Shown here piece after piece: positions 22,520-62,360 of a stretch of 64,000 nucleotides of DNA (its first letter is position 1; the number at the start of each line of letters is the position of its first letter). Where the stretch lies: contig CAWGBN010000008.1 of the NCBI GenBank assembly GCA_963820825.1, positions 352,001-416,000 of the forward strand, written 5' to 3'. Made by a program: the position numbers and the translations under genes. The stretch comes from Vulcanimicrobiota bacterium. GTDB taxonomy: Bacteria; Vulcanimicrobiota; Vulcanimicrobiia; Vulcanimicrobiales; Vulcanimicrobiaceae. The notes under the pieces were generated by a model. The model saw nothing but the letters and a program-made list of their open reading frames with translations, searched no databases and was not told where the DNA came from.

Positions 22520-22760
22520 CATGTATCCATGATGGCGCTGCGGCGCGATTAGCGGAACGGACACTTGGACAACCGACTTGGACAAGTGCGACCGATGCCG
22601 CCGAGGGCGTCAAGGCGCGGAGTCTCGGACAAGGCTTTAGAAGAAGCCTGTGCGTCGGCCCACGGCTCCGCGGGCACCTTGCCGCTCGGCGGACCGTCGT
22701 CTTACCGCGCCCCTTGCCGCAACCGGTATTGAATCCATGCTACTACACTTCTGCCCGCTG
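22520..22760 (-). promoter_or_regulatory. Conserved upstream element, copy A
   Basis: Core GGAACGGACACTTGGACAACCGACTTGGACAAGTG (22554-22588); extended similarity to 59103-59378 and 62189-62360. Confidence 0.7.
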
Positions 22761-22840
22761 ATGCTAAGCCGTGTGCGGGCACTCCGTTGACGACGTCGTC
22801 GCGAACCAATGCCTGATGGACACGATGGGCTTCGCCGAGG

Positions 22841-22871
22841 GATAATACATAAGGGCCTTCAAACGTCCGGT
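22841..22871. repeat. 31-bp direct repeat R1
   Basis: GATAATACATAAGGGCCTTCAAACGTCCGGT. Confidence 0.95.
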
Positions 22872-22890
22872 GCTGCCGACCCCAGCGCAT

Positions 22891-23887
22891 TCACGCCTCC
22901 GAGGATTGCTCGCTCTCGCCTGACTGATCGACCCGCAGGATGGCCTCCGCGATCTCCGCGTCTAGTCCGGGCTCGCTGGCTTTGCGAAGCTCAATAAGCC
23001 GGTCAGCCGCCCAAGTGGCCACTTTATCAATCTGGCTCGCAAGGGACGCTCGCTCGACGTTTTGAATGACGCGGATCGCCTGTCGGCGCCTGCCTTCTTG
23101 GAAGTCCCATGCGATGACACCGTTGACCCCTTCCTGGATCGAGTTCGAGCGCGCTCTAAGCAGTTCAAAAAGCCGCGCGTTAACGCCCGAGTCGGCGTGA
23201 TACAAAAAGACGTCCGAGCGTAGCTGATTCCGTCCAAAATTGACTGAGTACGCTATCGCTCCTTGGTGGGTTCGCTCCAGTACGTAGTCGGTATAGCGAC
23301 TCAAGGGCTCCAGCAATCGAGCGAATGCGCCACTGGCAACGGCGATCTCATGGATGCTGTCAAAAACCGCATTGAGTTGCTCTTGATCGGGCGCAACTTC
23401 GGTGCTCCTGGCTATCTGCGAAGTGCTTTTTTGCCACTGGTTCGGCAAGACCACAGTTCGGAAGTTGACCGCCGGCTTGGAGTCGTCGCAGCACTTCGAC
23501 TTGGATTCCAAAGAAATGCCTTGTGGCGATCGTGTTTACGTTAAGCCAGTCCAACGCCGCGCGATGCTCCTCCCGAAAAGTTGGGCTAATCCAGACGATG
23601 TGCCTTGCGTCTAATCCGGATGCATACGTCAGGATTTGGCCGAGGTGACGATGGTCGGTCGGTTCGATCTGGTTCTCGATGATGACTAGATCGTCCGTGC
23701 CAACGACGCGTGCGAGGATGTCTAATGAGAACGAGCCGACTTCGGCCTCACGTTTTAACAACTCTAGTTCGAGGCCTAGCATATCGCCGAGACGGTCAAG
23801 ATTGTCGGCAACCCACTTCGAGAAATGCACAGGTTCCGTAGGGAAGGTCTCACGAGGATTCAAGAAACGAAGCGTCCCGAGATCCAT
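22891..23887 (-). CDS. DUF4268-associated PD-(D/E)xK nuclease-like protein, frameshift near 23495
   Basis: FSKWVADNLDRLG, VGSFSLDILA, IIENQ..TDHRHLGQILTYASG; continues in ORF 22891..23511. Confidence 0.75.
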
Positions 23888-23951
23888 ATTAGCCTGTTCT
23901 CCTGAGATTGATATCGCTTAGCAGCTAAGAGCCTTCGGCGCGAGCGGCGCT

Positions 23952-23982
23952 GATATTACATAAGGGCCTTCAAACGTCCGGT
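23952..23982. repeat. 31-bp direct repeat R2
   Basis: GATATTACATAAGGGCCTTCAAACGTCCGGT. Confidence 0.95.
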
Positions 23983-24021
23983 TTGCGTTCGGCAGATCGC
24001 GACGCGGGCACATTGCCAGTC

Positions 24022-25044
24022 CTATAAAGCCAAGGTAATTACAACGGCAGAAATTCTTATGAGCGCGCGCTTCGTGAAGGAGTGAATCGTGTTGATGGGA
24101 GCCACGTTACCATTGGAGCCGGCGGCATAAACGTTTATTCCGGCTGCGCGCCCGTTTGCTTCGTAGATGTTGTCGGAGCTGTCCAGAGCGATGCCAATTG
24201 GACGTCGCATCGTTGTCAGGTGTCCATGGATCTTGCGGATGGGTGCTTCGTTGCCATCGGCTCCCGCGGGGTACACCGTAGAGATAGGCTGGATTGGAGT
24301 TAAAGTCTGCCACGTATATGTTCCCGCTGGAATCGAACGCGAGCTCCGTAGGATGAACCAATTTCGTACGGCTGCCAGCGATCGTTCGCATGGGCGTAAC
24401 GTTAGCCGTGCTGCCAGCGGCGTAGACGGTGATAGACGCCCCCGGCGTTTGCAACGTAAATGTTTCCACTTGTGTCCAGCGTGATCCCAGCCGGGAAAGA
24501 CAGTCCGGTACTTGGGCCGCTGATTACTCCGAGGGGAGCGACGTTTCCACTTGCGCTCGCTGCGTAGATCGTGATGCTGTTGTTTTCCAGAGTTTGCAAC
24601 GTAGAACTCTTCATTGTATTGGTCGAAGGCAATGCCGAAAGGGCTGTTCAATCCCGTTGCTGGGCCTCTTATCTTCTGTATTGGCGCGACATTCCCCATC
24701 GCGCCAGCGGCGTAGACGGTAACGGAGTCCCCACCGCCCTGGTTTGTAACATACAGGTTGCCGCTTCCATCTTCCGCGACGTCCCTCGGCGCAGCAAGCC
24801 TGGTGTTTGAGCCGCTTATCTCTCGTATCTGCGCCCAGTTGCCGCTGGTGCCTTCGCGCCCAAAGACCGCCAACGTCCTGCTCCATAAGGTATATAGGCA
24901 GGGGCACGAACTCGTGCTCCGTTTGATAGTTCCTGATTGGTTTTGCTGAGCGGCGTTCGCGCTTGAAAAGAGGGTATTTCCCCCGCAGCTTGTAAGTAAC
25001 AAAATCGCCATCGATGGGGCAACGATGTACGTTGCGGTTGACAT
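24022..25044 (-). CDS. NHL-repeat lipoprotein with internal frameshifts
   Basis: LTSC lipobox; repeated D..GNIYVAN...ITVYAAG..GNVAP units spread over three frames. Confidence 0.75.
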   Translation of the reverse strand: MSTATYIVAPSMAILLLTSCGGNTLFSSANAAQQNQSGTIKRSTSSCPCLYTLWSRTLAVFGREGTSGNWAQIREISGSNTRLAAPRDVAEDGSGNLYVTNQGGGDSVTVYAAGAMGNVAPIQKIRGPATGLNSPFGIAFDQYNEEFYVANSGKQQHHDLRSERKWKRRSPRSNQRPKYRTVFPGWDHAGHKWKHLRCKRRGRLSPSTPLAARLTLRPCERSLAAVRNWFILRSSRSIPAGTYTWQTLTPIQPISTVYPAGADGNEAPIRKIHGHLTTMRRPIGIALDSSDNIYEANGRAAGINVYAAGSNGNVAPINTIHSFTKRALIRISAVVITLAL

Positions 25045-25167
25045 GCGCACAATCACGCTCCTTTTTCTGCAACTTGCAATGCGCGGCAAGGTCCTAAGCT
25101 ACTTATCTAATGATCCCTGCCGCCCTCCTGGTGAATCAAAGGACAAGGCGGTCGGACCGCGGTTGCC

Positions 25168-25198
25168 GATACTACATAAGGGCCTTCAAACGTCCTGT
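25168..25198. repeat. 31-bp direct repeat R3
   Basis: GATACTACATAAGGGCCTTCAAACGTCCTGT. Confidence 0.95.
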
Positions 25199-25210
25199 TA
25201 GCCTGCGTCC

Positions 25211-27208
25211 TCATCCGTTGCTTACTGCATGCGTCATCGCTGGCACCCATGCAAACGAGAAGAGGTCGCGCATCCCATCTGCATCGATTCCGTTCGGTCC
25301 CACCCCGAACGCGTCGAAGAGTCTGCCGTACTTGCGGGTAAGCGCATAAACCAGGTTTACGTTCTCCTCAATCTGCTGCTCCGGCAGTTCCGGGTATTCG
25401 TCCGTCCGATTGCGGTGCGCCACATATTGGTTGGTGATGGTTACCAGCGCACGGCAAGCCTTCTTGAGCGCCTTTATGTCAGCCGCAATCTTCTCCGAGC
25501 TCATGTGAGTACCTGAGGCATCGGCAATGGCGGCAAAAGCTGCGGCGGCTTCGCCTTCGTATCGCTCTTGCCATTCGCGCCGAACCGACAGCGCTCTGGT
25601 CTTGAGCGTCTCGACGCACTTCTCAAGGCCGTAGGCCGTCGGATTGAGTTTTAGCTCTGTTAGGAAGTTTAGGAGGGAGACGCTGCGAACATCTGAGTCG
25701 ATCTGGCGGCGTACAGCCACCATGACGGATTCGACGACGGCTCTAGCGATGAACAAGAACATGTAGATGCTCGCAGGATGCTCGACGACGCGCGCATTCG
25801 ACATGCCAGCCGCGTGAATGACCTTGAAGTGTTGCCATACCGTCCAAGCATTGTTGATTTCAATGCCGATGGTTTCGATGTCAGCCTTCCATCTCGCGAT
25901 AAGGGCTTCGTCTGTGGGGATGCGACGGCGTTCCCATGGCTTGATCGCAACGAGTGTGCGGCGGAAGAACTCAAGGAAGCGCTCCAGGTCTGCGTGTGGA
26001 TCGGGATTGTAGAATGTGCCCGAGCCATCTTCGTGTTGCACTAAGACGACGTGCTTCATCGGTGAGCCGAGCAGAGCGAGCTTCGCCTTGTAACGAGCCA
26101 TAGCGATGACGTAATCACGCATCTCGCCTGTGAAGTAGTCCGCATCAGTGAAGTAGCCGAGCTCGACGGCTTTCGCGTCGATCTCTTCGTCGCTAAAATC
26201 GTTATCGTCGGCGTAGACTACCTGCTGGGTCAACAGCTCACGGTGAACCGAAGTGTGCCGCATATCGCGCAATAGCCCATAACTATCCCAGAACGCGTCC
26301 TCTTTGAACAGCGCATAAACCTCCGGTGCGCTCTGCTTGATAGCGCGTTGAAACGATGACTTGAGAGCGCCTATTTGAGAATCTGGAGTTGGCAAGTTGT
26401 ATGCTCTTACGATCAACGTCGCGGTTTGATCGAACGCGGTGTAAAGATTCACGTAGAACTGATTTAGATAGGCAGTGTATTCGAAACGGAAATCCTGACG
26501 CTCGAACCCTGCTCGGTGCGCCCAGCGATCCTGCTGACGGTAGAATGCCATCCGGTCGCGACTAAAGCAGAGCGTCTGGAGAGTCAGTACGAGCAGGCGC
26601 ATCGCTTCCGCGGTTTCCGACGACACCTTCTTCGACTGCTCCCACTCGTGGAGAATGTCCGTGAAAATGCTGTGCTCGCTCATTGCGTAGAACTGCATCC
26701 ATGGTTGAAACTTCGCCGCCCCTTCGAACGACCACGGAGCGTTAAAACCCTTGGCATGCAATTCCGCTTGTCGCAGAACTCCGGCTATCGTGCTCGTCAC
26801 CAGCGCCGAATCGTCGGTGATGGCTGGATGCAGCTGCTTTTCGTCGCCCGACAGAACAACGTCGCAGTCGTAGCGTCTCGCGATTCGTGCAACCTCGTCG
26901 GCGTCGGACTCATCGAAAGCCGCAATCTTACTAAACTCGACGGTGAGCGATTCGAGCGTGGCAATCGCAGTAGCCGCCTGCGCGGGAACGAACAACGTGA
27001 CCTTCAGATCATCGAAGCCGAGGTCCGCGAAATACCAGTTCAGCAGTTGGATGCGCGCGAGCCGTTCGCTGTTTGCGGCGTCCAGGGTCTGGTCGGCGAC
27101 GAGCACGTCCAATCCCCTCTTCCAGAGACCCGTGCTCGTTATCGTAGCCGTGCCGTAATCGTAGAGGAACCGTAGGGCGAGATTCCGTGGAATCATTTGA
27201 ACCACCAT
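25211..27208 (-). CDS. Multidomain protein with two putative HEPN-like domains (possible defence gene)
   Basis: Intact 665-aa ORF; RHTSVH (R-x4-H) in a helical domain; C-terminal AbiU2-like region (VRRQIDSD..SVSL..FL, NQYVAH). Confidence 0.5.
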   Translation of the reverse strand: MVVQMIPRNLALRFLYDYGTATITSTGLWKRGLDVLVADQTLDAANSERLARIQLLNWYFADLGFDDLKVTLFVPAQAATAIATLESLTVEFSKIAAFDESDADEVARIARRYDCDVVLSGDEKQLHPAITDDSALVTSTIAGVLRQAELHAKGFNAPWSFEGAAKFQPWMQFYAMSEHSIFTDILHEWEQSKKVSSETAEAMRLLVLTLQTLCFSRDRMAFYRQQDRWAHRAGFERQDFRFEYTAYLNQFYVNLYTAFDQTATLIVRAYNLPTPDSQIGALKSSFQRAIKQSAPEVYALFKEDAFWDSYGLLRDMRHTSVHRELLTQQVVYADDNDFSDEEIDAKAVELGYFTDADYFTGEMRDYVIAMARYKAKLALLGSPMKHVVLVQHEDGSGTFYNPDPHADLERFLEFFRRTLVAIKPWERRRIPTDEALIARWKADIETIGIEINNAWTVWQHFKVIHAAGMSNARVVEHPASIYMFLFIARAVVESVMVAVRRQIDSDVRSVSLLNFLTELKLNPTAYGLEKCVETLKTRALSVRREWQERYEGEAAAAFAAIADASGTHMSSEKIAADIKALKKACRALVTITNQYVAHRNRTDEYPELPEQQIEENVNLVYALTRKYGRLFDAFGVGPNGIDADGMRDLFSFAWVPAMTHAVSNG

Positions 27209-27278
27209 GTTCTACAGCGCAGCGCGTCGCCGTCCGCCCTAGACCGTTTCAGCCCAGGAGAGTAGAGTATCACGTTCG

Positions 27279-28625
27279 TCAAGGCCTCTGGTTTCGTTCA
27301 GGGCTGTTGCTTGCGCGGCCGGTGACTCGGCGCCGGTTATTCTCGGCGAGCACGGCGCCTCGTTTCTTCGCCGCCTCGCCTCCGTGCCCGGGATTAAGAC
27401 CGGCCGCACGCATCTCAGCAAGCCGCGCCTGCGCCTTCTCGATCGGCTTCGCTACCTCGACGCTATAGCGCAGATAGCAATGGCGCCCGCAGAACTTCAG
27501 TCCTTTCCGCGGTAGCGGCTCCTTGCAGTAGCCGCAGGTGGACTCGATCCCACGCCGCGCGCCGCTGCTCGATCGGCTTCGGCGCTTCGCGAACCAGCCG
27601 CCGCGGCACGGCGATCCGGCGCAACTGCTTGGCGTAGTCGTTCGCGAGCTCCAGCGCCGCCTTGCGGAAACGGGGCATCAGCGCCGAGGCGAGGAGTCCC
27701 GTCAGATCGGGATCGAGCCGTACAACCCCATCGCGCAGCTCATGGAACATCGCCGGGTGCAGCTTCTCTTTGTGGAGCAGCTCCAGCGCCCACACGTCGG
27801 CCTTCGCTCGCAGCGGTTCGAGCAGATCGTAGATGAACGATTCGCGCAGCCGATCGTCGGTGTGGAGCAGCCCAAGGTCGGGGTCGAGCCCGACCGCCTC
27901 GCAGGCGATCCGCGTCTCCACTTCGAGCAGCGTATAGCAGTAGTTCAGGATCGCGTTGAACGGATCGGTCGCATCGCGTACCCGTTCGCGTCTCCCGTTT
28001 GTCCGCGGACGAGATCGCCGCCCAGTGCGCCGGTATCCGCTTGAGTGCCCACGGTCGCCACGGCAGCGGCGTCTCGACTAGGAGATTCCAGTAGACTTGT
28101 GCGGCACGTCCCTCCAGCGCGAGGAAGTCCACAAGCGTCGTCGTTTCCATCAGCGACGCTTTGCATGCGTGGATTTCCGAGGTTGCCGTGGACTTCCCGG
28201 AGACGTTCACGATTCCGAGTCTCGGAAAGTCTCGTTCGATCGCGGAAATCTGCGAGTCCAGTTTCTTTTCCAAGGAGGTACCGCGCCAAGTTCACCGCGT
28301 CGTCCGTCACCGCGGAGACCGCCTGTGCCCGCTTCACCGGTCCGTCGTGCGGCGCGTCGGGAACCATGCAGTTCAGCAAGGTACTGTCGGACGCCACGAA
28401 CGAGACGGCGATCCCCATGCGGGCACACCAGTCGATCGCCTCCATCGAGACGGTCCCGCCCGGCGCGCGAATGACGATCCGTTCGATCGAGCACCGTCCG
28501 CGCGGGAAGCGGATTTCCCGGGTCTTTCCTTCGCTTGCGAAACCGTCGCGCGTGACGAGGTGGCCTCGCTCGACAAATAGTTGCGCGTTGTAGCCTTCGA
28601 TGGTGAGAACGCGATCATTGTGCAT
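27279..28625 (-). CDS. cas1: Solo Cas1 (casposase-like) with C-terminal Zn-finger extension; about 3 frameshifts
   Basis: Joined frames give LALEGRAAQVYW, DATDPFNAILNYCYTLLE, GLDPDLGLLHTD...SFIYDLLEPLR (catalytic E/H/D-E), then CGYC..FCGRHC..GHGGEAAKKRG; TGA at 27279-27281. No cas2 or other cas genes. Confidence 0.9.
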
Positions 28626-29616
28626 GGTCTACTCCAATGACTTTTGGAACGAGTTTGTAGGTTGTTGCAAACGAGTCGATTGCGGTATCGATCCCCTGTG
28701 TGTCACCAGCGAGGTAAGCCGCCATATTCGCTATGCCCCTCTCGTCGTGACTGACGTCGAATGCACCAGCATAGGCGAGGCTGCGAAGCGCAGCATCCGT
28801 CGCCTCGAACTCCGATGCATCTTCGACGATCGGGTAGCTGGGCACCGGACGAATCGGCACGCGCACGCCGGCCGCTTCCAAACGCCCAATGAGCAGCGCC
28901 TGCATCTGCATCGTCTGAACCGCAGCGCGAACCTCCGGCTCGGGGGCATCTCCACTCGTAACGATCTGAAAATGGCTGTGCCGGCCCTGACGAAGCCAAG
29001 GCGTGATTTGGTCTAGTAGAAGCATTGCTTTGGGTGCAAACTCGATCGCTGCGCTCTCATCAACGCGCATCATTGTAAGTAATCGAATAACGTCGCGCTC
29101 GAAGAAAGCGCCCTCGTTGTAGGCTACGGGAAGCAGCATGCGGGCGGCATGCTCGGTAAGGTCTCGCGCTAGTTGGTAGGCGGGGTCAGCTTTGATCTTT
29201 CGCTTCGGCACGAACTCATTCGCCAGCTGTCGCGCAAGATGCGGGATGCGCCGCGGATGAAAGCCGATGCCGCTCCAGCTGTTCGCGCGATGGAGCTCCC
29301 GATCGACCTTCGCCAACGCCGCGGAAATTCGATCGCGGGCGCCGCGATGCACCCGGTCCCATGGAATGGTGTGGTAGTTGCGATAGGCCAGTTCGAGACA
29401 GAGGCCATCATGATCGCGGGCAAGCTGCATAGTGCCCTCGATCGACAATATGTATCGCAGATCGATCAGCGCGGCATCGGAGATCCGGTATTGGCGTCCG
29501 CAGCGCGTCGAGCGTACGCCAAAAATGCGTAGCCGGTGCAACTTGTCCGACCCGATCCTAAAGCCCTCAGCCCGCAGCTGGTCGAGGGCCTCGCTCAAAA
29601 GCGGTCCGTCAACCAC
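28615..29616 (-). CDS. Hypothetical protein with possible N-terminal HTH; overlaps cas1 start
   Basis: Intact 333-aa ORF with an 11-nt overlap with the cas1 start. Confidence 0.65.
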   Translation of the reverse strand: MVDGPLLSEALDQLRAEGFRIGSDKLHRLRIFGVRSTRCGRQYRISDAALIDLRYILSIEGTMQLARDHDGLCLELAYRNYHTIPWDRVHRGARDRISAALAKVDRELHRANSWSGIGFHPRRIPHLARQLANEFVPKRKIKADPAYQLARDLTEHAARMLLPVAYNEGAFFERDVIRLLTMMRVDESAAIEFAPKAMLLLDQITPWLRQGRHSHFQIVTSGDAPEPEVRAAVQTMQMQALLIGRLEAAGVRVPIRPVPSYPIVEDASEFEATDAALRSLAYAGAFDVSHDERGIANMAAYLAGDTQGIDTAIDSFATTYKLVPKVIGVDHAQ

Positions 29617-29716
29617 CTAGAGGGTATTCGGCGCGGCAGCTTTTGGCTCCGCGTGAAGTTGTCAGTTCCGCGCCTTTTCTGGCGGCGTAGCAGGCGTCAG
29701 AAAGGAGGCCTGAGTC

Positions 29717-30214
29717 ATGGCCAAATCACGGGTGTTCCTGGGCATCGACCAACTGTTCTACCACCAGGACGCGTATCGACGCGCCCTCGATGCGATCGGC
29801 TTCAAGCGCCGACATCCCAAAATGTCGTTCACGAAAGCTGCGAAGCTGAGCGGCACCACGATCAAGACGGTTCGCAAGTACGCCGGATCGGCAATGGAGG
29901 TCCGATCCGGACGGATCGACGTAACGCGAACAGATGCGCTCAAGCGCCGGATGCGCATGCTCACGCCCCAGGGTGAGATCGCGGTCCCGACGACGAGCTC
30001 GCAGACTGCCTCGCGGATCAGCCGGTACAACAACGCGGTGCGCGAGTTTTACGCCACCGGCAAGACGGCGGCGCTCAAGCCATTCGTTGGTAAGTCAGTG
30101 CGTTCGGGTGGAAAGCGGTACGAGTTCGTCACGAATCCCGCCACGCTCAACCGGCTTGGCCGCGCTGGCAGCGTACACTTCTCGGAGATCTATGCTCCTG
30201 AGTCCGAATCATGA
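29717..30214 (+). CDS. Basic hypothetical protein with HTH-like segment
   Basis: AAAGGAGG Shine-Dalgarno; SFTKAAKLSGTTIKTVRKY; ATGA overlap with the next gene. Confidence 0.7.
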   Translation: MAKSRVFLGIDQLFYHQDAYRRALDAIGFKRRHPKMSFTKAAKLSGTTIKTVRKYAGSAMEVRSGRIDVTRTDALKRRMRMLTPQGEIAVPTTSSQTASRISRYNNAVREFYATGKTAALKPFVGKSVRSGGKRYEFVTNPATLNRLGRAGSVHFSEIYAPESES

Positions 30215-30853
30215 GGCCCGTCTATCAGGAGCCAAACGACGGCAACGACACCAAGAAGCTGCTGCGCTTGGGCACCGATCGGCCGCGCTGTGCGAGCTGC
30301 CGGACCGACGACTTCCGGCAGCTCTGCTCCGTGCACGACGCTCGGGGCCGCAGACGGATCTTATGCCGGAACTGCCGCGCCAAGCACAAGCGCCTCTCAG
30401 CAGCAGCTGCAGCACGCAAACGGCGGCAGTTTGCAGCTGACGGCTACGAGCAGCCTGCATGCGTGGTGTGCGGGGAGCCAGCGCTGCAGCTGCTTGAGCG
30501 CGATCACCTCACGGGAGCTGCCAATAGCGGTAGCACGGAGCCTTTGTGCGCTAATCATCACGCGATCAAGTCGTACATGGCCGAGCACGGGCTGATGGCA
30601 GCTCTGCGGCTGCGTGATCCGGAGCGATCGGCCTTGCTTTTGCAGGCAGCATTCGAGTTCGGCCTTGGTGCGATGCTCGGGATGTTCGCAGTTGGGACGG
30701 CGCGCACGGAGAGACGGCACGCTGCATCTTCTTGGGTCGCCTCCGTGCTGCTCTTTGCATGGGCTGCGTGGAACGTTTCGGCGGACTGCGTACTTCGAGG
30801 GTGTACTGGGACCGGGCTACGATCGCGCGATCGGGGCGGCGGTGCCGCGATGA
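30211..30853 (+). CDS. Zn-finger/HNH endonuclease-like protein with hydrophobic C-terminus; frameshifted
   Basis: CASC..CRNC, CVVCG..ERDH..LCANHH; likely end in frame 30614..30853; ATGA overlap with polB. Confidence 0.65.
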
Positions 30854-33800
30854 TCCGGCGCGAGGCTCCGCGGGCGCGAAGGCGTCCCAACGGGCTCCGA
30901 AGGGCGCGGCCGCAAGCCTCAGCACCGTCCGAACTCGTCGCAATGGCGGCTCAGCCCCCTATCAGCAGGCGCAGGACGGGCATTCTCGCCGTCGATACGG
31001 CGATTCGGGCGTGGGTCGAACCGCACAAGGCGCACAGCGCGTCAACGGTAAGCCGAAGACCGTTGCGTGGCGTCCGCAGCCCTACGGCGATCGCGTTCTG
31101 GTCTTCGACACGGAAACCACGACCGACGCGGCGCAGCGGCTCCTCTTCGGGTTCTTTCGCCTCTACGAGCGTCGATCGGCTGATCGAGGAAGGCCTCATC
31201 GTCACCGACCTGCTCGATTACGAGCAGATGATGACGCTCGACCGAATACGCGGCGACAATGCCACTTGCCGATCTACAGCCGCGAGCGCTTCGTGGAAGA
31301 AGTGTTCTACCCGGAGGTTTACGAGCGACGGCACCCTCTGCGTGGGCTTCAACCTGCCGTTCGATCTCACGCGGATCGCCGTTCACGCGGGAATCGGCCG
31401 TGGCGAAAATCGCCGCAAGTTCCGCCTGGTCACTTTCGAGGCGCATTCGCTGGCACGATTTACGCATTGAATCCGCCTCGGGCCGTGCAGCCTTTATCGG
31501 GTTCATCCCCAAGCGCAAGCTCTTCGCGTGGGAGAAGCCGTTCTTCGCCGGGCGCTTCTGCGATCTCAGCACGCGTCGCAGTGCGTTCACCGGCAAGCGT
31601 CATACGCTCAAAAGCGCGGGCAATGCATTTACGGACCTAGCACGCGCAAGATGACGTGCGCCGGAGCTCGGCGTGATCGACCGGCGCTCCTGCTCTACGG
31701 GCGGCAGGACGTCCGTGCAACCTGGGCACTGTACAAGGCGCTACGTGCAGTGAGTACGAGCGACACCCCTTCGCTACGTTCGCGAACGAGCGCAGCAAAC
31801 CCAAGCACGGGCACGTTACATGGGGCGAGCTGTATTCCAGCGCGAGCATTGCCAAGCAATATCTGCGCCTGCTCGGGATTACGCCGCTGCTACATAAGCG
31901 CCCGGCACTTCTCGCGCAAGCTCTGGGCAACGCGATCGCCGCGTACTTCGGCGGCCGGGCCGACGTGCGCGTACGCAAGACGGACGTGCCGGTGCGCGTG
32001 CTCGACTTTACGGCGAAGTACGCGACGCATCTTTTGCCTTCAGCGGCTCGACAAGACTGCTCGTCGCCCCGTCGATCGGGATCAAGCTCGTCACCCCCTG
32101 GGTGAAGGGCCTCCTCACCCTTTCAGAAGCCCGCAATGGGCCTGCTGTACGACTCCAAGACCTGGCCGAAGTTCAACTGCCTGGTGCTGGTCGACCCGAA
32201 CTGGGCGATCCTACCGGTCCGCTTCCGCACAAGGACAGCGATCCGTACACGATCGCCGTTACGCCGCTGCAGACGCGGGAAGGGCGCTGGTACACATTGG
32301 CGCGATGTAATCGCGGCGCGTTCTGCTGGGTGGGCCGCCACCGCAAGTCCGTCAGTGCGATCCGCTTCGTTCCGAAGGGCCGCCATCAGGCACGAGACCA
32401 CATCGCTTTCGCGGAGAGGTTGAGCTGCGATCGAAGCGCAGCCGTTCTTCACAGACGATCGTGGAGCAGCGCCAGATCGCCAAGCGCGGAGCAAAGGACG
32501 ATCCGGATCTCGCGGCGCTTGAAAGGGGCCTAAAGCAGATGGCGGCCAGCGGTGCGTACGGCATCTATGCCGAGGTCAACGTCACGCCCCGCAGCCGCGA
32601 CGACCGACGTGCCGGGCGAGGCGTATTCGGACATCATGCTATCCGACGGCCGAAGGTCCACGACGAACGGCCCGGCGCTTTGCGAATCCGATTATTGCAA
32701 GCCTCGTCACCGGCGGCGCACGGCTGATGCTCGCCATGCTCGAACGCGAGGTGACGCGCCGCGAGGCGGCACGTTTGCCTTCTGCGACACCGACAGCTCT
32801 CGCGATACCTCGCGGAGACGAACTGCCCCGATGGGATCCCCTGCGTGCCGGAAGCGACCATCGGGGAGATCGTTGCTGCGTTCGATGCGCTCAACCCGTA
32901 CGATCCAGCCACGGTGCCGCACTTGCTCAAGGTCGAGTATCCGGGCATTTCCGATCTGCGGTGCTTCGCTGTTTCCGCGAAACGGTACGTCCTCTATCGG
33001 TGGCGACCCGGGCGCCGCATTGAGATCGTGAAAGCCTCGGAGAGTGCGCTGGGTGCGATTATCGGACGACCCGCAACGAATCGACCGCAAAGCTGGCGCG
33101 TCGGGTGTGGCTGTCGATCCTGATAAAACACCTTGACGTTAACCCGCAGCAGCGGCGCCGGGCCAAGCCGCTGATCGATTTCGACGTTCCCTTGCGCCGG
33201 AAGTTTCCGATTAGCCAGCCAGCGATCTTTGCAACGAATGAAAGCCTACAACAAGGGGCGGACATACGACCATCGGTCAAGCCGTTCGGCTTCGTGCAGA
33301 CCGTAATCCCGCCCGTGAAGATCGGAGCGAAGGAGTCCCCTACCGATTGCGCCGTTTGAACTCGATCTTGCAAAATCCAAGCGCTCGCGTGGGTCGACTT
33401 TAACACCGGCGAGCCGATGCGCCTAGATTGGCACGAAAGCCACATGGCGGGCACCATCCCCGTCATGCGGCTGAGCGACGTACATCGAGCGATATCACGA
33501 ACCACCCCGAAGCCAAGGCCGCCGATCGGATCGGCAATCCCGCAGGGCCGGAAACGACTGGGCCTTCTCCAGCGACTGCAAGCTGCGGTCAGAGAGGCTT
33601 GCGCGAATCGGTAAGGAAGTCGATCGGCTCGATGAGGACGAGGGTGCTTCGCTTGAGGCCGGTCAGCCCACCGAATACGAGCGCGACGACCTGGCGGAGG
33701 ACATAGCGTGGTTAGCGACGTTCCCGCGCGAACAGGTAGCCAACGACATCGGCATATCAGAACGGAGGTGGCGCGATATCATAGAGCATCGATCCAACCC

Positions 33801-33876
33801 ACGTCGCGGAACCGCTGCTCAAATCAATCGCGTTGCGGAAGAGTATGGGCATCAGTTTAATATCGGGCAGAATTAG
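30850..33876 (+). CDS. polB: Family B DNA polymerase with C-terminal HTH-like tail; many frameshifts
   Basis: In order across frames: ExoI VLVFDTETT, ExoII GFNLPFD, ExoIII YGRQDV, AYFGGR, motif A LDFTAKY, motif B LKQMAASGAYG, motif C FCDTDS, SAKRY, IGKE; TAG at 33874-33876. Confidence 0.85.
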
Positions 33877-39312: not shown

Positions 39313-39614
39313 CTCGCAGCTTCGGGATCATTCGATTGCCATGACGAGCGTGCCGCCGAGGTCGACGTTCTGCGCCTCGACGCCGAAGTTAATCCCCGGG
39401 CCTTGCAGACGCTCTCCAGCCAGACGCGCCTCGCAATTTGTGCAAAACATAACCGCCCAAAGCGGTCAACGACTATCTAGCTGGTAACCTGTACGAATAA
39501 GCAGCTACGCGCATCACCTCGATCGCTAGGCCTAACCGGGGGTCTTCTCCCAAGATTTTACGCCACGGATAACTAGAAAATGGCGGCGAACACCGACCGA
39601 CAGGAGGTTCGCCC

Positions 39615-39881
39615 GTGCGCAAGTCCCGCTACTCCGACGAGCAGATCGCCGCAGCCCTGCGCCAAGCCGAAGCCGGCACGCCGATCGTCGATATCACCCG
39701 CAAGTTGGGAATCTCCGAGGCAACGTTTTATGCCTGGCGCAAGCGTTTTGGCAGTTTGGGAACGCCGGAGATCCGCGAGTTGCGTCAGCTACGTGACGAA
39801 AACGCGCGCCTTAAGCGACTCGTTGCAGATCTGACGCTGGATCGTCAGGTCTTGCAGGACGTCGTTAAAAAAAAGTGGTGA
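39615..39881 (+). CDS. IS3 transposase OrfA
   Basis: HTH plus leucine-zipper pattern; AGGAGG Shine-Dalgarno. Confidence 0.85.
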   Translation: MRKSRYSDEQIAAALRQAEAGTPIVDITRKLGISEATFYAWRKRFGSLGTPEIRELRQLRDENARLKRLVADLTLDRQVLQDVVKKKW

Positions 39882-40530
39882 GGCAGGTGCGCCGCACAGT
39901 CATGCTGCCAAAGGTGCGCGAGGCCTGGCGCTTGAGCGAACGGCGGGCGTGTGTCGTACTCGACATCAATCGCAAGATGGTGCACTACTGCCCCGTCAAG
40001 CGCGACGATCCCATTCTGCGCGCTCGGATCAAGGAGATCGCTCACACGCGCATTCGCTACGGCTACGAACGGATCACGATCCTGTTGCGGCGTGAAGGCT
40101 GGCAGGTCAATCGCAAGCGCGTGCGGCGGATCTATCGCGAAGAAAACCTCGCAATCCGTACGAAAACACCCGAAACGCCGGCGCGCCGCAGTCGTGCGGA
40201 CAGAACGGGTCGTACCCAGCGCGCCAAATCAGAGCTGGGCCATGGACTTCATGCACGACGTGCTCGCTGACGGCACCAAGATTCGCCTTTTAACCATAGT
40301 CGATTCATTTACTCGCGAGAGCCTTGCCCTCGAGGTGGCCTCGGGGTTCAAATCGACCGACGTCGTCGAGGTACTTCGCCGCCTCGTTGCCGAGCGTGGA
40401 TCACCGCAACGGATCCACTGCGATAACGGCCCAGAGTTCGTATCTTTGCAGCTGGATCAGTGGGCCTACTGGAATCGGGTGAAGCTCGACTTCTCGCGGC
40501 CCGGGCGCCCGTCAGATAACGCTTTTTGCG
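39878..40530 (+). pseudogene. IS3 transposase OrfB, frameshifted and truncated
   Basis: DDE core motifs split between ORFs 39875 and 39951; ends just after the catalytic E. Confidence 0.8.
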
Positions 40531-41611
40531 AAGCCTTGCTTACCACGACGCCCTCTGGCGTACTAAAGCCCCTCAGCGTATTGGTGGGGTAACCGCCGGC
40601 CGGATAATGATAGAACGAAGCGGTGTTATTTTGTTGACCATTTTGGAGCGTCACAATCACTTTGCCGTCCTGAATCCAAAAGTCTACTGGATACGAGGCG
40701 TAAGAACCATAACCAGTGTTGAGAGGCGTCCTGGCCACGCCCGATGCGCCCGAGGGCGTGATCTTTAAGCCGTAAATTACCGCGGGTATGTTGTTGTCGT
40801 CTGCGACAGCGAAATATTGGCCCTTGCCGTACCATTGAACGCCGCTCGGGGCGAGGCAGCATCCCCCGCTAACTGACAGCTGCTTAACCACGTGGCTGCC
40901 TTTAGCAAGCTCGAATAATAGGAAGAGTCCCTCGTCACAGCCGCCGTTGTCATCGATGAGAAGATTGCCGCTATTGTCGTAGGCGAGCCAACGCGGAGCC
41001 CCCATGCACTCCTCTGTATAGTAGTGAATCGGCTTGCCCTGAGCTTTCTTATAGATCGCAATTCCCAGCGTCGCGGTGCCCTTCGCGATCCAACCGTTGG
41101 AGAGAGCCAGATTCCCTGTCGTCGGGTCTACGGCGCAATCCGCGGGGACGTAGTAGTTCGCTGAGTTTTCGCTCAGGGTCGCAATCGGCGTCGTGCCGCC
41201 GTGCGCGTACTCGATGACATATGGCGTGTTAGGGGGGGAATATGCCGCATCCTGATTCACGATCCAAACGTCGCCCTTCCCGTCGACGCACATGCCGGTG
41301 GGCGCATCCAGGGGCGAGCCCTGCAACTCTCCCTCCAAGTGCACCTTTGGAAATGAGTAAACATCAACCGTGCTGTTGCCACCATTGGAGATATACAGGA
41401 GGTCCTGCTTCTTGGCGTCGGGAGCCATCCAGGACCTCCCGTGACCGTCGACCCGCGCCGAACGAACCTTATAGTGTCGAATTGCCTGTGCGAGGCCGAT
41501 TCGCGTAACGGCTGAAGCGCCGGGCAACGTCGCGCCGCTGTTACAGCCGGAGAGAAGAATTATACTTGCTACAGTGCTTGCTGCGTACGGGGTGAGCATT
41601 CGCGCCTTCAA
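40466..41611 (-). CDS. NHL/SMP-30-like beta-propeller lipoprotein
   Basis: LSGC; SWMAPDAKKQDLLYIS; CAVDPTTGNLA; C-terminus reads into IS3 DNA. Confidence 0.8.
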   Translation of the reverse strand: MKARMLTPYAASTVASIILLSGCNSGATLPGASAVTRIGLAQAIRHYKVRSARVDGHGRSWMAPDAKKQDLLYISNGGNSTVDVYSFPKVHLEGELQGSPLDAPTGMCVDGKGDVWIVNQDAAYSPPNTPYVIEYAHGGTTPIATLSENSANYYVPADCAVDPTTGNLALSNGWIAKGTATLGIAIYKKAQGKPIHYYTEECMGAPRWLAYDNSGNLLIDDNGGCDEGLFLLFELAKGSHVVKQLSVSGGCCLAPSGVQWYGKGQYFAVADDNNIPAVIYGLKITPSGASGVARTPLNTGYGSYASYPVDFWIQDGKVIVTLQNGQQNNTASFYHYPAGGYPTNTLRGFSTPEGVVVSKASQKALSDGRPGREKSSFTRFQ

Positions 41612-59028: not shown

Positions 59029-59102
59029 GAAGCTTCCTTCCGAGCGAGGTGCCGAGCTTTGGAGTGAACTCCGACTTCTCTCAATGCGCAAGTTCTTGAC
59101 TC

Positions 59103-59378
59103 TATGATGGCGCCGCGGCGCGATCAACGGAACGGACAACTGGACAACCGACTTGGACAAGTGGAAGCCGTGCCGACAAGGAAAGCGCCGAGACGCGGAG
59201 TCTCGGACTTAGGCTTAGAGCGGTCGGATCCCGGCAAGCCTTTCAGACCAGCATCGCCTGAAAGGAAGCCCGAGCCTCGGCCCACGGCTCCGCGACTCAC
59301 CGCGCCGCTCGGCGGACCCCGTGCCCCTTGCCGCAACCGCTATGAATCCATGCTACTAAAAACTACTTCTACCCGTGA
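59103..59378 (-). promoter_or_regulatory. Conserved upstream element, copy B
   Basis: Core 59129-59163; colinear with 22520-22760. Confidence 0.7.
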
Positions 59379-59540
59379 TCGCGAAGCTGTGGGCGTCGCG
59401 GCGGGAGCGGAAGGATGCGGAACTCACGCAAAAAAGAGCCGCCCGAGATTCGCGAGCGGCTCGACGCTCTGCAAAGTGTAAAAGAAGAGACTTTTCGCCT
59501 GCCCGTGCGATGCGTTAGCGAGGCGCGAAGTTTAACTAGA

Positions 59541-62188: not shown

Positions 62189-62360
62189 CATGTATCCATG
62201 ATGGGGCAGCGGCGTGATCAGCGGAACGGACACTTGGACAACCGACTTGGACAAGTGGAAGCCTAGCGACGAGGAGAGCGCGGAGGCGCGGAGTCTCGGG
62301 CTAGACTTCAGCAGAAGCCTGAGCGTCGGCCCTCGGCTCCGCGGGCACCCCGCCGACGGG
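62189..62360 (-). promoter_or_regulatory. Conserved upstream element, copy D
   Basis: Core 62223-62257 identical to the copy A core. Confidence 0.7.

Follow-up and report, generated by a model that had tools for sequence, protein, structure and literature searches.

The three direct repeats that part a row of genes beside a broken cas1 gene are copies of the terminal inverted repeat (TIR) of a casposon. They lie in a stretch of 64,000 nt of bacterial DNA, here called the window. The outermost copy, T1, is the real end of the element. The two inner copies, I2 and I3, reproduce this end in full length except for the two terminal bases, where CT or CC stands in place of GG. The casposon is decayed, and its cargo has probably grown outward step by step, leaving disarmed former ends inside. 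Casposons are transposons moved by a Cas1-type integrase and carrying their own family-B DNA polymerase; the CRISPR adaptation module is presumed to descend from them. The same layout in related bacteria hints at how casposons build up their cargo, and it bears on the ways in which cargo is gained and a repeat array could arise beside cas1. The lineage provides many natural cases of full-length ends buried among passenger genes, several of which are defence genes, and live and buried ends are sharply set apart by two terminal bases. This group is a new bacterial casposon family, defined by an end of 33 nt, a duplication of 14 bp and a single target within a conserved gene.

Repeats and genes of the window

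The sequence-only reading of the window had described three direct repeats of 31 bp. They were confirmed on the plus strand at 22841, 23952 and 25168 with no mismatch to the degenerate 31-nt pattern, which had no match in 100 shuffles, so none is expected by chance; a core of 23 nt, TACATAAGGGCCTTCAAACGTCC, is identical in all three copies. The length of the unit had to be revised, because at least 33 nt are conserved and the repeats begin 2 nt further left, at 22839, 23950 and 25166. T1 (22839–22871, plus strand, GGGATAATACATAAGGGCCTTCAAACGTCCGGT, nhmmer score 40.0) starts with GG, I2 (23950–23982, plus strand, CTGATAT..., score 38.8) with CT and I3 (25166–25198, plus strand, CCGATAC...) with CC. 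I2 and I3 also have a common inner extension which is missing from T1. A fourth, solitary copy is located on contig C6 of the genome, adjoining a second Cas1 fragment.

The gene arrangement given in that reading was found as described. On the minus strand the order is cas1, gene A, repeat, gene B, repeat, gene C, repeat, with a single gene in each of the spacers of 1080 and 1185 bp and with 12, 39 and 19 nt from the stop codon to the next repeat. Gene A (25211–27208, minus strand) is intact and encodes 665 aa with HEPN domains (AbiU2 PF18734, E 1.1e-08; a weaker match is Cthe_2314-like). Gene B (24022–25089, minus strand) resembles NHL/beta-propeller lipoproteins and is frameshifted, its matches to an NHL homologue falling in two frames. 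Gene C (22891–23887, minus strand) is by its profile matches a PDC-S11-type candidate defence gene with a C-terminal DUF4268 (E 7e-59 over positions 4–138 and E 2e-16 over 140–311 of the 318-position profile), split by one frameshift into the pieces 23360–23887 and 22891–23511. Genes C and A agree with the earlier impression that two of the genes look like defence genes.

The cas1 gene had been called a solo Cas1, but it is a broken casposase gene adjoining a broken PolB-like gene. The pseudogene (27306–28625, minus strand) consists of four frame pieces with 81–92 % amino acid identity to the Cas1 of genome G200 and contains three 1-nt insertions relative to its intact homologue in G007; intact homologues of 443–459 aa are present in G007, G200, G072 and G080 (PF01867, E 1e-34 to 1e-37; TIGR00287). 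Upstream of cas1 lies a conserved gene of 333 aa (28615–29616, minus strand), whose N-terminus weakly matches a MerR/excisionase-like winged helix and whose remainder is helical; no recombinase fold was found in it. Two conserved small core genes (29675–30786, plus strand), homologous to ORFs of 207 and 221 aa in G072, are located directly upstream of the PolB-like gene, and the second may encode a terminal protein. The PolB-like remnant itself (30501–33843, plus strand), recognised by homology to related elements, is spread across all three frames. For the PolB-like protein of the family, matches to Pfam DNA_pol_B_2 (E 0.009–0.047) stay below the cut-off, a profile comparison with the PDB places Pol alpha chains on top, though weakly (E 0.27–0.9), and in the nearest ESM Atlas clusters 12 % of the members carry DNA_pol_B_2 or DNA_pol_B. 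The alignment A2 contains FDTET, NLPFD, YGRQD, DFTSMYP, KxxANSGAYG and FCDTDS, which we take to be family-B exonuclease and polymerase motifs. The last stretch homologous to a related element ends at 33780 (33444–33780; 72 % identity to L022 9608–9275), and no right-hand TIR was found after this position in the window. With frameshifts in cas1, polB and two of its cargo genes (B and C), and with its right end gone, the window element is now dead.

The repeat is a casposon end

The full form of the TIR, GGGATAyTACATAAGGGCCTTCAAACkTCCGGT, belongs to a bacterial casposon family in metagenome-assembled genomes (MAGs) labelled Candidatus Eremiobacteraeota. In relatives it bounds elements of 1.7–17 kb which have perfect 14-bp target duplications and use one conserved host gene; the whole TIR comprises about 45–65 nt with a variable inner boundary. 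Inverted TIR pairs with a perfect 14-bp duplication were found in G012 (gctgcgaaagccac) and G014 (acgccgagcaccac) as well as in G080 and G093, and G072, where two casposons of 15 kb lie in tandem, possesses the duplication ATGGGTTTCGCAGA three times. The host gene of G200 is interrupted by a 17-kb element that contains cas1 and polB and again has a perfect 14-bp duplication; residues 1–186 lie on one side and 181–412 on the other. This target gene is present in 103 of 121 family genomes.

Only the cas1-side end is present in the window, hence a single 14-bp copy; the duplication itself is seen in relatives. T1 adjoins this copy (ATGGGCTTCGCCGA, 22825–22838, plus strand), which has exactly the sequence of the site in the intact gene of this genome, and next to it a 40-nt 'leader-like' piece of the canonical target gene (22785–22824, plus strand). 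The piece was recognised by homology to the host gene (85 % identity of 22785–22838 to nt 501–554 of the gene for 412 aa, L049:2134–3372), the rest of which is absent from the window, an intact copy being located elsewhere on the same contig. The leader-like block also flanks TIRs in L024, L028, L035 and L026, and the 14-mer of the window occurs with 1–3 differences at both casposon ends in G072, G080, G200 and G007. As T1 starts with GGG, the transferred strand ends with ...TATCCC-3'; the end in this family, ...GTATCCC, can be set beside the Methanosarcina mazei casposon end used for the crystal structure, 5'-TATATCCC (PMC6977970). A Cas1-family integrase gene was found together with TIRs at both ends and a 14-bp duplication, the latter two in relatives; casposons typically have all three, with duplications of 14–15 bp. 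The suspected link of the repeat to cas1 was correct: it is the terminal repeat of a cas1/PolB element.

Two other kinds of site were considered and rejected. The repeat is present in 75 of 348 family genomes and in 48 of 90 within the genus, with 0–13 copies per genome, which does not fit a dif/Xer site, and an att site of a separate recombinase was dismissed because no recombinase was found in the island.

Buried ends in related elements

A terminal TIR followed by one to three inner copies at distances of 0.05–3.5 kb was found in 15 arrays from 12 genomes of three genera. These arrays hold 20 inner copies, always oriented like the terminal copy beside them; 13 of the 20 begin with CT. The break occurs at the same base in all 20 tabulated inner copies, the other 31 bases being conserved or identical. 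Arrays exist at either end of the element, leader-proximal and leader-distal, and enter the target as part of it; casposons that occupy the canonical target (G022, G236) have them too. The sequence-only reading had proposed looking for the same repeat with different genes and varying copy number; relatives show both (0–3 inner copies), and Cas1 proteins 79–84 % identical to that of G007 adjoin entirely different cargo. Family-wide, 108 of the 150 copies listed start with GG and 42 do not; 15 of these 42 keep one G, and a pyrimidine bias at bases 1–2 is seen in 27.

Terminal and inner copies resemble each other more within an array (5.45 differences) than across arrays (8.05), a likeness reached in none of 5000 permutations for the 11 arrays of the genus. 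In G234 all 31 bases that follow the first two are the same in both. The window segment with I3 and the 3' end of gene A (25168–25537) is 93 % identical over 371 nt to L022 10019–9649 of G012, a different species, where the counterpart of I3 is a terminal TIR that starts with GGG and adjoins a 14-bp duplication; the homology stops between TIR bases 2 and 3. Judged by these sequences, a gain in the window and a loss in G012 would both fit. This is the one inner/terminal pair with a common inner flank among about 80 copies compared, and none of them displays a module-gain step as such. Four otherwise unrelated loci have a single block in common, in which an inner copy precedes the start of a prolyl aminopeptidase gene by about 30 nt. 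In nine other family genomes no TIR lies within 1.5 kb of the gene C homologues, which indicates that gene C is not a circulating module.

Probable outward growth and its alternatives

For the casposase of Aciduliprofundum boonei only five 3'-terminal TIR bases are reported to be needed (PMC6614799). GG would be among the few terminal bases required for strand transfer, and the inner copies would therefore be disarmed former ends. Outward growth would start from cas1, gene A and an end; gene B with a new end would be added outside, then gene C with another, each step leaving the previous end inside. The route we favour runs through co-resident or tandem casposons whose TIR copies exchange with one another, either because they recombine or because a polymerase switches templates inside the repeat; this would move modules of TIR and gene and keep GG only on the outermost copy. 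Several observations count against this explanation: no recombinase domain was detected in a scan of 13 ORFs of the island, the gene C homologues lack nearby TIRs, and the ORFs beside inner copies, counted below, often do not fit. The pyrimidine bias is not predicted by simple decay, so that shared descent and transitions must be invoked. Buried copies left over from recombination among co-resident elements would explain a turnover of cargo much faster than that of the core.

A plainer history, which we consider rather unlikely, would consist of insertions, in tandem or nested, of mini-casposons or other casposons next to the resident end, or of a stray nearby TIR used as the new outer end and picking up the intervening DNA. 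At the junctions, later decay would have removed right ends and 14-bp duplications, and inner ends would have survived only if disarmed by terminal point mutations. Tandem arrays and two-ended mini-elements of 1.7–4.5 kb are indeed common in this family, and both are known from Methanosarcina (PMC4779613, PMC4046053). The whole island is decayed, the copies with one remaining G may be half-way states, and in G229 an inner copy still adjoins a near-perfect reverse target copy, and G234 has an 8-nt remnant. However, a comparison of 12 inner copies with the 14-bp duplication of their array in both orientations (24 tests) gave one p of 0.003 and otherwise chance values, no inverted TIR remnant is found between the window copies, and the uniform position of the break also speaks against this history.

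The sequence-only reading had suggested that the casposase may repeatedly insert gene-sized DNA at one site, the repeat being a target duplication made by Cas1. In such a mechanism staggered cuts would flank the terminal repeat, which would be duplicated with every insertion as in CRISPR adaptation, and a Cas1-made gene array would be built. A top-strand joint between bases 2 and 3 would yield an outer copy that keeps GG and inner copies that begin exactly at base 3, as observed. The identity of the G234 copies and of the window cores points in the same direction, the inserted strand could have left its 3' ends as the pyrimidines that precede base 3, and casposases are reported to integrate non-TIR and single-stranded DNA in vitro (PMC6977970, PMC6614799). 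However, the only duplication demonstrated in this family is 14 bp long, a spacing which in M. mazei is described as set by the tetramer of the casposase (PMC6977970), and the repeat is the element's own end. Moreover, the similarity of terminal and inner copies runs a variable 15–30 nt past base 33, which argues against a fixed cut site, and the inner extension of I2 and I3 is not shared by T1. Arrays at leader-distal ends, carried into the target within the element, and the failure to find Cas2 in the 85 % complete genome are further objections, so that this duplication is not supported and seems quite improbable.

Repeated Cas1-driven gene capture is possible in another form: the casposase or protein-primed replication could join foreign gene-sized DNA just inside the terminal repeat and regenerate a live end outside. 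We think this unlikely. If it were true, TIR-derived direct repeats with captured DNA beside cas1 would be a half-way form between casposon and CRISPR array, and a built-in addition of genes at the ends would be a Cas1-based counterpart of the integron. Should the element's own enzymes make the buried copies, genes would be captured by a new route, and there would be a concrete model of how a repeat array forms beside cas1.

Finally, the inner copies might be working parts, either extra binding sites for the casposase, the terminal protein or an element regulator, or outward promoters or operators heading each passenger gene and copied along with it. Their conservation over at least 31 bases across three genera in unrelated surroundings is consistent with such a role, as is their position 30–120 nt upstream of the next gene start in the window and in the aminopeptidase module; a long conserved TIR, it has been argued, must serve something besides integration (PMC6614799). 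However, no sigma-70-like promoter was predicted in the repeats on the gene strand, and a crude ORF test found an outward-reading ORF with its start no more than 300 nt away for only 17 of 33 inner copies (for 9 there was one reading toward the repeat). The match of I3 to a terminal copy elsewhere would also stay unexplained. As the explanation of the arrays such a function is highly improbable, yet it is compatible with outward growth and does not exclude it.

Comparison with known systems

Like integron cassette arrays, the arrays are rows of mostly single-gene units parted by a conserved site beside an integrase gene, and at least one unit (prolyl aminopeptidase with its repeat) occurs in several unrelated contexts. 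Unlike them, they have no tyrosine recombinase, their repeat is the transposon's own end instead of a folded attC-type site, and they travel as part of a mobile element, at both of its ends. An integron site was rejected, since no IntI or other recombinase domain was found in the 13 island ORFs and four repeat-containing 56-mers folded no better than shuffles (z -0.24 to +1.85). CRISPR arrays share the nearby Cas1 homologue, direct repeats of about 31 nt and, in the window, a leader-like sequence beside the outer repeat. In contrast, the 'spacers' are genes of 0.4–3.5 kb, the repeats are neither palindromic nor folded, and insertion duplicates 14 bp and not the repeat. A CRISPR array was likewise rejected, as the window spacers each hold a gene (CRISPR spacers have about 25–50 bp) and Cas2 (PF09827) was not found in the genome.

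The closest known systems are the casposons of family 2 (M. mazei MetMaz-C1, A. boonei) and of the bacterial family 3 (PMC4046053, PMC4779613, PMC6977970, PMC6614799, PMC10359463). As far as described there, they share a Cas1-type integrase beside a family-B polymerase gene (PolB-like here), TIRs with a transferred strand ending with ...TATCCC, a 14-bp target duplication, one specific target needing an upstream 'leader', tandem pile-ups separated by a shared duplication, and dead copies with broken polymerase genes. The present family differs in its hosts, in a target inside a protein-coding gene, at an in-frame ATG, and in a polymerase so diverged that Pfam barely detects it. It differs further in full-length inner TIR copies with two changed terminal bases which split the cargo into modules; no report of inner full-length TIR copies dividing casposon cargo was found in the literature searched.

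Composite transposons have weakened inner ends. Like these, and like plant Mutator-like elements, for which multiple TIRs are reported (PMC3310237), the present casposons contain extra end copies in the same orientation with cargo between them. However, the transposase is of another class, and exactly two terminal bases separate the inner copies from the live end.

Organization of the repeat array

The array in the window is a real feature. All three matches to the repeat pattern (22841, 23952 and 25168) lie on the plus strand, and none of 100 shuffled sequences matched. A sequence-only reading had described an invariant 23-nt core, spacers of 1080 and 1185 bp and, on the minus strand, the order cas1 > gene A > repeat > gene B > repeat > gene C > repeat with each stop codon close to the following repeat; this was borne out, with the core identical in all three copies and stop codon-to-repeat distances of 12, 39 and 19 nt. 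The conserved unit comprises at least 33 nt and starts 2 nt left of the reported positions, at 22839, 23950 and 25166. It opens with GG in the outer copy T1 (22839–22871, plus strand), which is a true end, but with CT and CC in the two inner copies, I2 and I3.

All genes of the array are encoded on the minus strand. Gene A (25211–27208) codes for an intact HEPN (AbiU2) protein, gene B (24022–25089) for a frameshifted NHL propeller lipoprotein-like protein and gene C (22891–23887), also frameshifted, for a protein that matches the PADLOC candidate defence family PDC-S11, its two pieces giving E values of 7e-59 and 2e-16. The cas1 gene (27306–28625) is split into four frame pieces, with three 1-nt insertions in comparison to the cas1 of a relative's genome (G007), and the PolB-like gene is scattered across all three frames. 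These frame breaks are probably real and not assembly errors, since no such breaks affect the host genes in other parts of the window. The G+C content of the cargo is 52–59 % versus 62–66 % in the core. The genome itself (2.98 Mb, nine contigs) is 85 % complete; Cas2, which the sequence-only reading had not seen either, was not found in it, nor was an intact cas1.

Two further repeated elements occur in the window. An IS3-family insertion sequence (39539–40532) shares 99.8 % identity with one on contig C6 of the same genome and was therefore recently active. The DNA just left of the array (22520–22780) is itself a repeat of 70–290 nt, with further copies at 59101–59395 and 62189–62355, on C6 (466593–466660) and in the relative G217.

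The repeat is the terminal inverted repeat of a casposon family

The motif was detected in 75 of the 348 species genomes of the host family and in 48 of the 90 in the genus, with 1–13 copies each. The lineage falls into Candidatus Eremiobacteraeota, also called Vulcanimicrobiota, to which the nearest ESM Atlas cluster of the polymerase points as well. This copy-number pattern rules out a dif site; the GC skew of two contigs was too weak to place the terminus. An exact-pattern scan of a collection of genome contigs returned seven matches, two of them in Eremiobacteraeota records and the other five probably due to chance. In relatives the motif forms inverted pairs with outer ends GGGATAy, flanked by perfect 14-bp direct repeats. 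Examples are a 2.8-kb element in G012 (duplication gctgcgaaagccac), a 4.5-kb element in G014 (acgccgagcaccac), two 15-kb elements in tandem in G072, where ATGGGTTTCGCAGA occurs three times, and tandem elements in G080 and G093 including a mini-element of 1.66 kb. The large elements share a core of a PolB-like gene of about 1000 aa, two small genes, a conserved gene for a 333–352-aa protein and cas1, with variable cargo on both sides. The inverted pairs, the 14-bp duplications and the splitting of a conserved host gene identify the motif as the terminal inverted repeat (TIR) of casposons, transposons with a Cas1-type integrase and, here, a PolB-like gene. The family is site-specific and generates a 14-bp target duplication; the outer copy in the window is a normal end. 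The transferred strand of this family ends in ...GTATCCC-3', and the M. mazei casposon end in the casposase crystal structure is given as 5'-TATATCCC (PMC6977970).

In the window, a right-hand TIR was found neither by regular expression nor by nhmmer. A fourth, solitary copy of the motif lies on C6, where a second fragment of Cas1 is 6 kb away. This contig carries a second, more degraded casposon remnant (C6:619993–620424), with two TIR copies in locus L027 at 8007 (−) and 9292 (+); the Cas1 fragment, located amid IS3 and IS110 fragments, is 76 % identical to residues 296–439 of the G007 Cas1.

The target gene

The host gene hit by these elements is conserved, codes for 412 aa and was found in 103 of the 121 family genomes searched, a count that includes genomes flagged as unpublished. 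It belongs to no Pfam or NCBIfam family; its CLMDTMGF motif may indicate a likeness to clostripain-like peptidases. In G200 a 17-kb element splits this gene, leaving residues 1–186 on one side and 181–412 on the other, and the same split exists in G007, G050, G022 and G236.

In the window, the 14-mer ATGGGCTTCGCCGA (22825–22838, plus strand) adjoins T1 and is identical to the site in the intact gene of the same genome. Beyond it, on the side away from T1, lie 40 further host-gene bases, the whole 54-nt stretch being 85 % identical to nt 501–554 of the intact copy. The remainder of the gene is absent from the window; since only this short piece is present, the insertion is at an ectopic site. 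A query with the left flank for an empty site gave no homologue among 60 other species of the genus, and no tRNA, tmRNA or known RNA that might serve as a target was found within the window. A 62-aa open reading frame (ORF) through T1 was discarded: it has short matches at other TIR sites only and comes from reading the target-gene piece on its opposite strand.

Several TIR sites are non-canonical in this way (window 22785–22838 and loci L025, L026, L011, L007, L020 and L021) and are flanked by just 45–105 nt of the target gene. It is as if the elements there had carried a target copy and some leader along; for M. mazei, a casposon that took its duplication to a new site in vivo is reported (PMC10359463).

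Inner copies of the TIR

The inner copies are full-length TIRs which differ from an end at the two terminal bases alone, and their layout is recurrent. The tabulation covers 15 arrays, which together hold 20 inner copies and come from three genera (12 genomes). One inner copy in G229, which abuts a reverse target copy, was left out of this tabulation, as were from the array count the direct repeats of G210 (contig C2) and G217, in which a truncated TIR lies beside IS110-family transposase genes. Every tabulated inner copy has the orientation of the adjacent terminal copy, at a distance of 0.05–3.5 kb over the 15 arrays. Bases 1–2 of the 20 copies are CT in 13 cases, TT in two, and CC, CG, TG, GC and TC in one each. 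Of 150 copies listed across the family (a further 19 are unlisted), 108 start with GG; the 42 others begin with two pyrimidines in 27 cases (CT 12, CC 6, TT 5, TC 4) and contain one G in 15. Two arrays sit in casposons that occupy the canonical target, at the polymerase end of the element in G022 and at its cas1 end in G236; the arrays are therefore part of the mobile element.

Copies within an array resemble each other. Over bases 3–33, terminal and inner copies show 5.45 differences within an array and 8.05 across arrays, and none of 5000 permutations reached the observed likeness (11 arrays of the genus); in G234 both copies are identical beyond bases 1–2. The similarity of terminal and inner copies runs inward past base 33 by a variable 15–30 nt, and arrays are present at leader-distal and leader-proximal ends alike. 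The last two features bear on the idea of the sequence-only reading that Cas1 may insert gene-sized DNA at one site and thereby duplicate a 31-bp repeat in a CRISPR-like manner. The junction geometry does fit such a duplication, yet the 14-bp target duplication, the leader-distal arrays and the inner boundary of the repeat, which varies, are at odds with it, and we regard it as quite improbable.

The inner copies were also considered as back-to-back tandem junctions (right end, 14-mer, left end). Such junctions do exist in relatives; in the window, I2 and I3 are preceded by no inverted copy and no 14-mer. The 14-bp duplication was also looked for in degraded form ahead of the inner copies; of 24 tests, one gave p 0.003 and the others were at chance, and a likeness between inner copies and leader plus target, judged by eye, was unconvincing. 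The alternative of simple insertion, in tandem or nested, with later decay and point mutations that disarm the ends, would demand many independent losses, all equally placed, and is unlikely. The repeat contains no sigma-70-like site on the gene strand that might act as an outward promoter, the number of sites being similar to that in shuffles, and no hairpin above shuffles.

Possible movement and exchange of repeat-gene modules

At least one inner copy has a terminal counterpart in another genome. A 371-nt stretch made up of I3 and the 3' end of gene A matches, with 93 % identity, a terminal TIR of G012 with the same gene end. The G012 counterpart begins with GGG and adjoins a 14-bp duplication, and the homology ends between TIR bases 2 and 3; this is the sole inner/terminal pair of its kind among about 80 copies compared. 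Furthermore, an inner-type copy lies about 30 nt upstream of the start codon of a prolyl aminopeptidase gene (TIGR01249, E 1e-89), and this unit of gene and repeat is the sole block of homology (73–78 % identity) that links four loci, in G219, G208, G220 and G221, which are unrelated in all other respects. Cas1 proteins 79–84 % identical to that of G007 adjoin wholly different cargo. No TIR lies within 1.5 kb of the gene C homologues scanned at nine loci in other genomes of the family (a tenth locus, in a genome flagged as unpublished, was excluded), and by a crude test just 17 of 33 inner copies have an outward-reading ORF close by; both results count against a general cassette pool.

We infer that the inner copies are disarmed former ends and that the cargo grew stepwise outward. 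The A. boonei casposase is reported to require just five 3'-terminal TIR bases (PMC6614799) and that of M. mazei to favour ends with a 5' strand recessed by 2 nt or more (PMC6977970), so that the two bases altered in the inner copies fall precisely on the positions which determine end activity. Our preferred route would be an exchange inside the repeat between co-resident casposons, often in tandem, by recombination or by template switching during replication. It would account for three features: GG is kept by the outermost copy alone, beside the target copy, the copies of an array resemble one another, and a unit of repeat and gene can turn up in unrelated contexts. The CT bias would reflect descent from a single inner-type ancestor, since CC, TT and TC can be reached from CT by transitions.

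Proteins beside cas1, IS110 elements and defence cargo

The PolB-like polymerase is recognized only weakly by profiles; its alignment shows motifs which we take to be the classic family-B motifs. The conserved 333–352-aa protein, without known family, is encoded in the window at 28615–29616 (−) and beside cas1 in every full casposon of the family. Its first 70 or so residues have weak matches to MerR/excisionase winged helices (Z 5–6.4, VIA-align), and the remainder is helical in the AlphaFold model (pLDDT 80.8), for which a Foldseek search gave nothing at E ≤ 0.001. The protein may assist the casposase, either by binding the ends or in a regulatory role.

IS110-family transposase genes directly adjoin casposon TIRs in locus L058 (7629 and 10283; G210, contig C2) and in L057 (9146; G217), and further such neighbourhoods exist in L056 (6351–7355; G229) and on C6 of the own genome (L027, 5052–6314). 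At both L058 and L057 an IS end of about 20 nt, common to the two loci, precedes a TIR cut off at base 7/8; this arrangement looks like an IS110 lineage targeting the casposon end sequence. The cargo of intact casposons in G072 (L029, 1357–5447 and 15301–16692) and G200 (L062, 19118–19948) includes an OLD-family nuclease, a SIR2-like protein, AAA_21/AbiEii-like ATPases and a protein kinase; these elements are carriers of defence-type genes.

Comparison with known casposons

With the casposons described for the archaeal families and for bacterial family 3, the elements share Cas1, TIRs, the 14-bp duplication, a site-specific target and tandem pile-ups (PMC4046053, PMC4779613). New here are the lineage itself and a target that lies at an in-frame ATG within a protein-coding gene. 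The foremost novelty is the partitioning of cargo by full-length inner TIR copies, of which no report was found in full-text literature searches or in term searches of casposon papers. The interest lies in this recurrent architecture of a live end plus buried ends, with a possible bearing on the origin of repeat arrays beside cas1.
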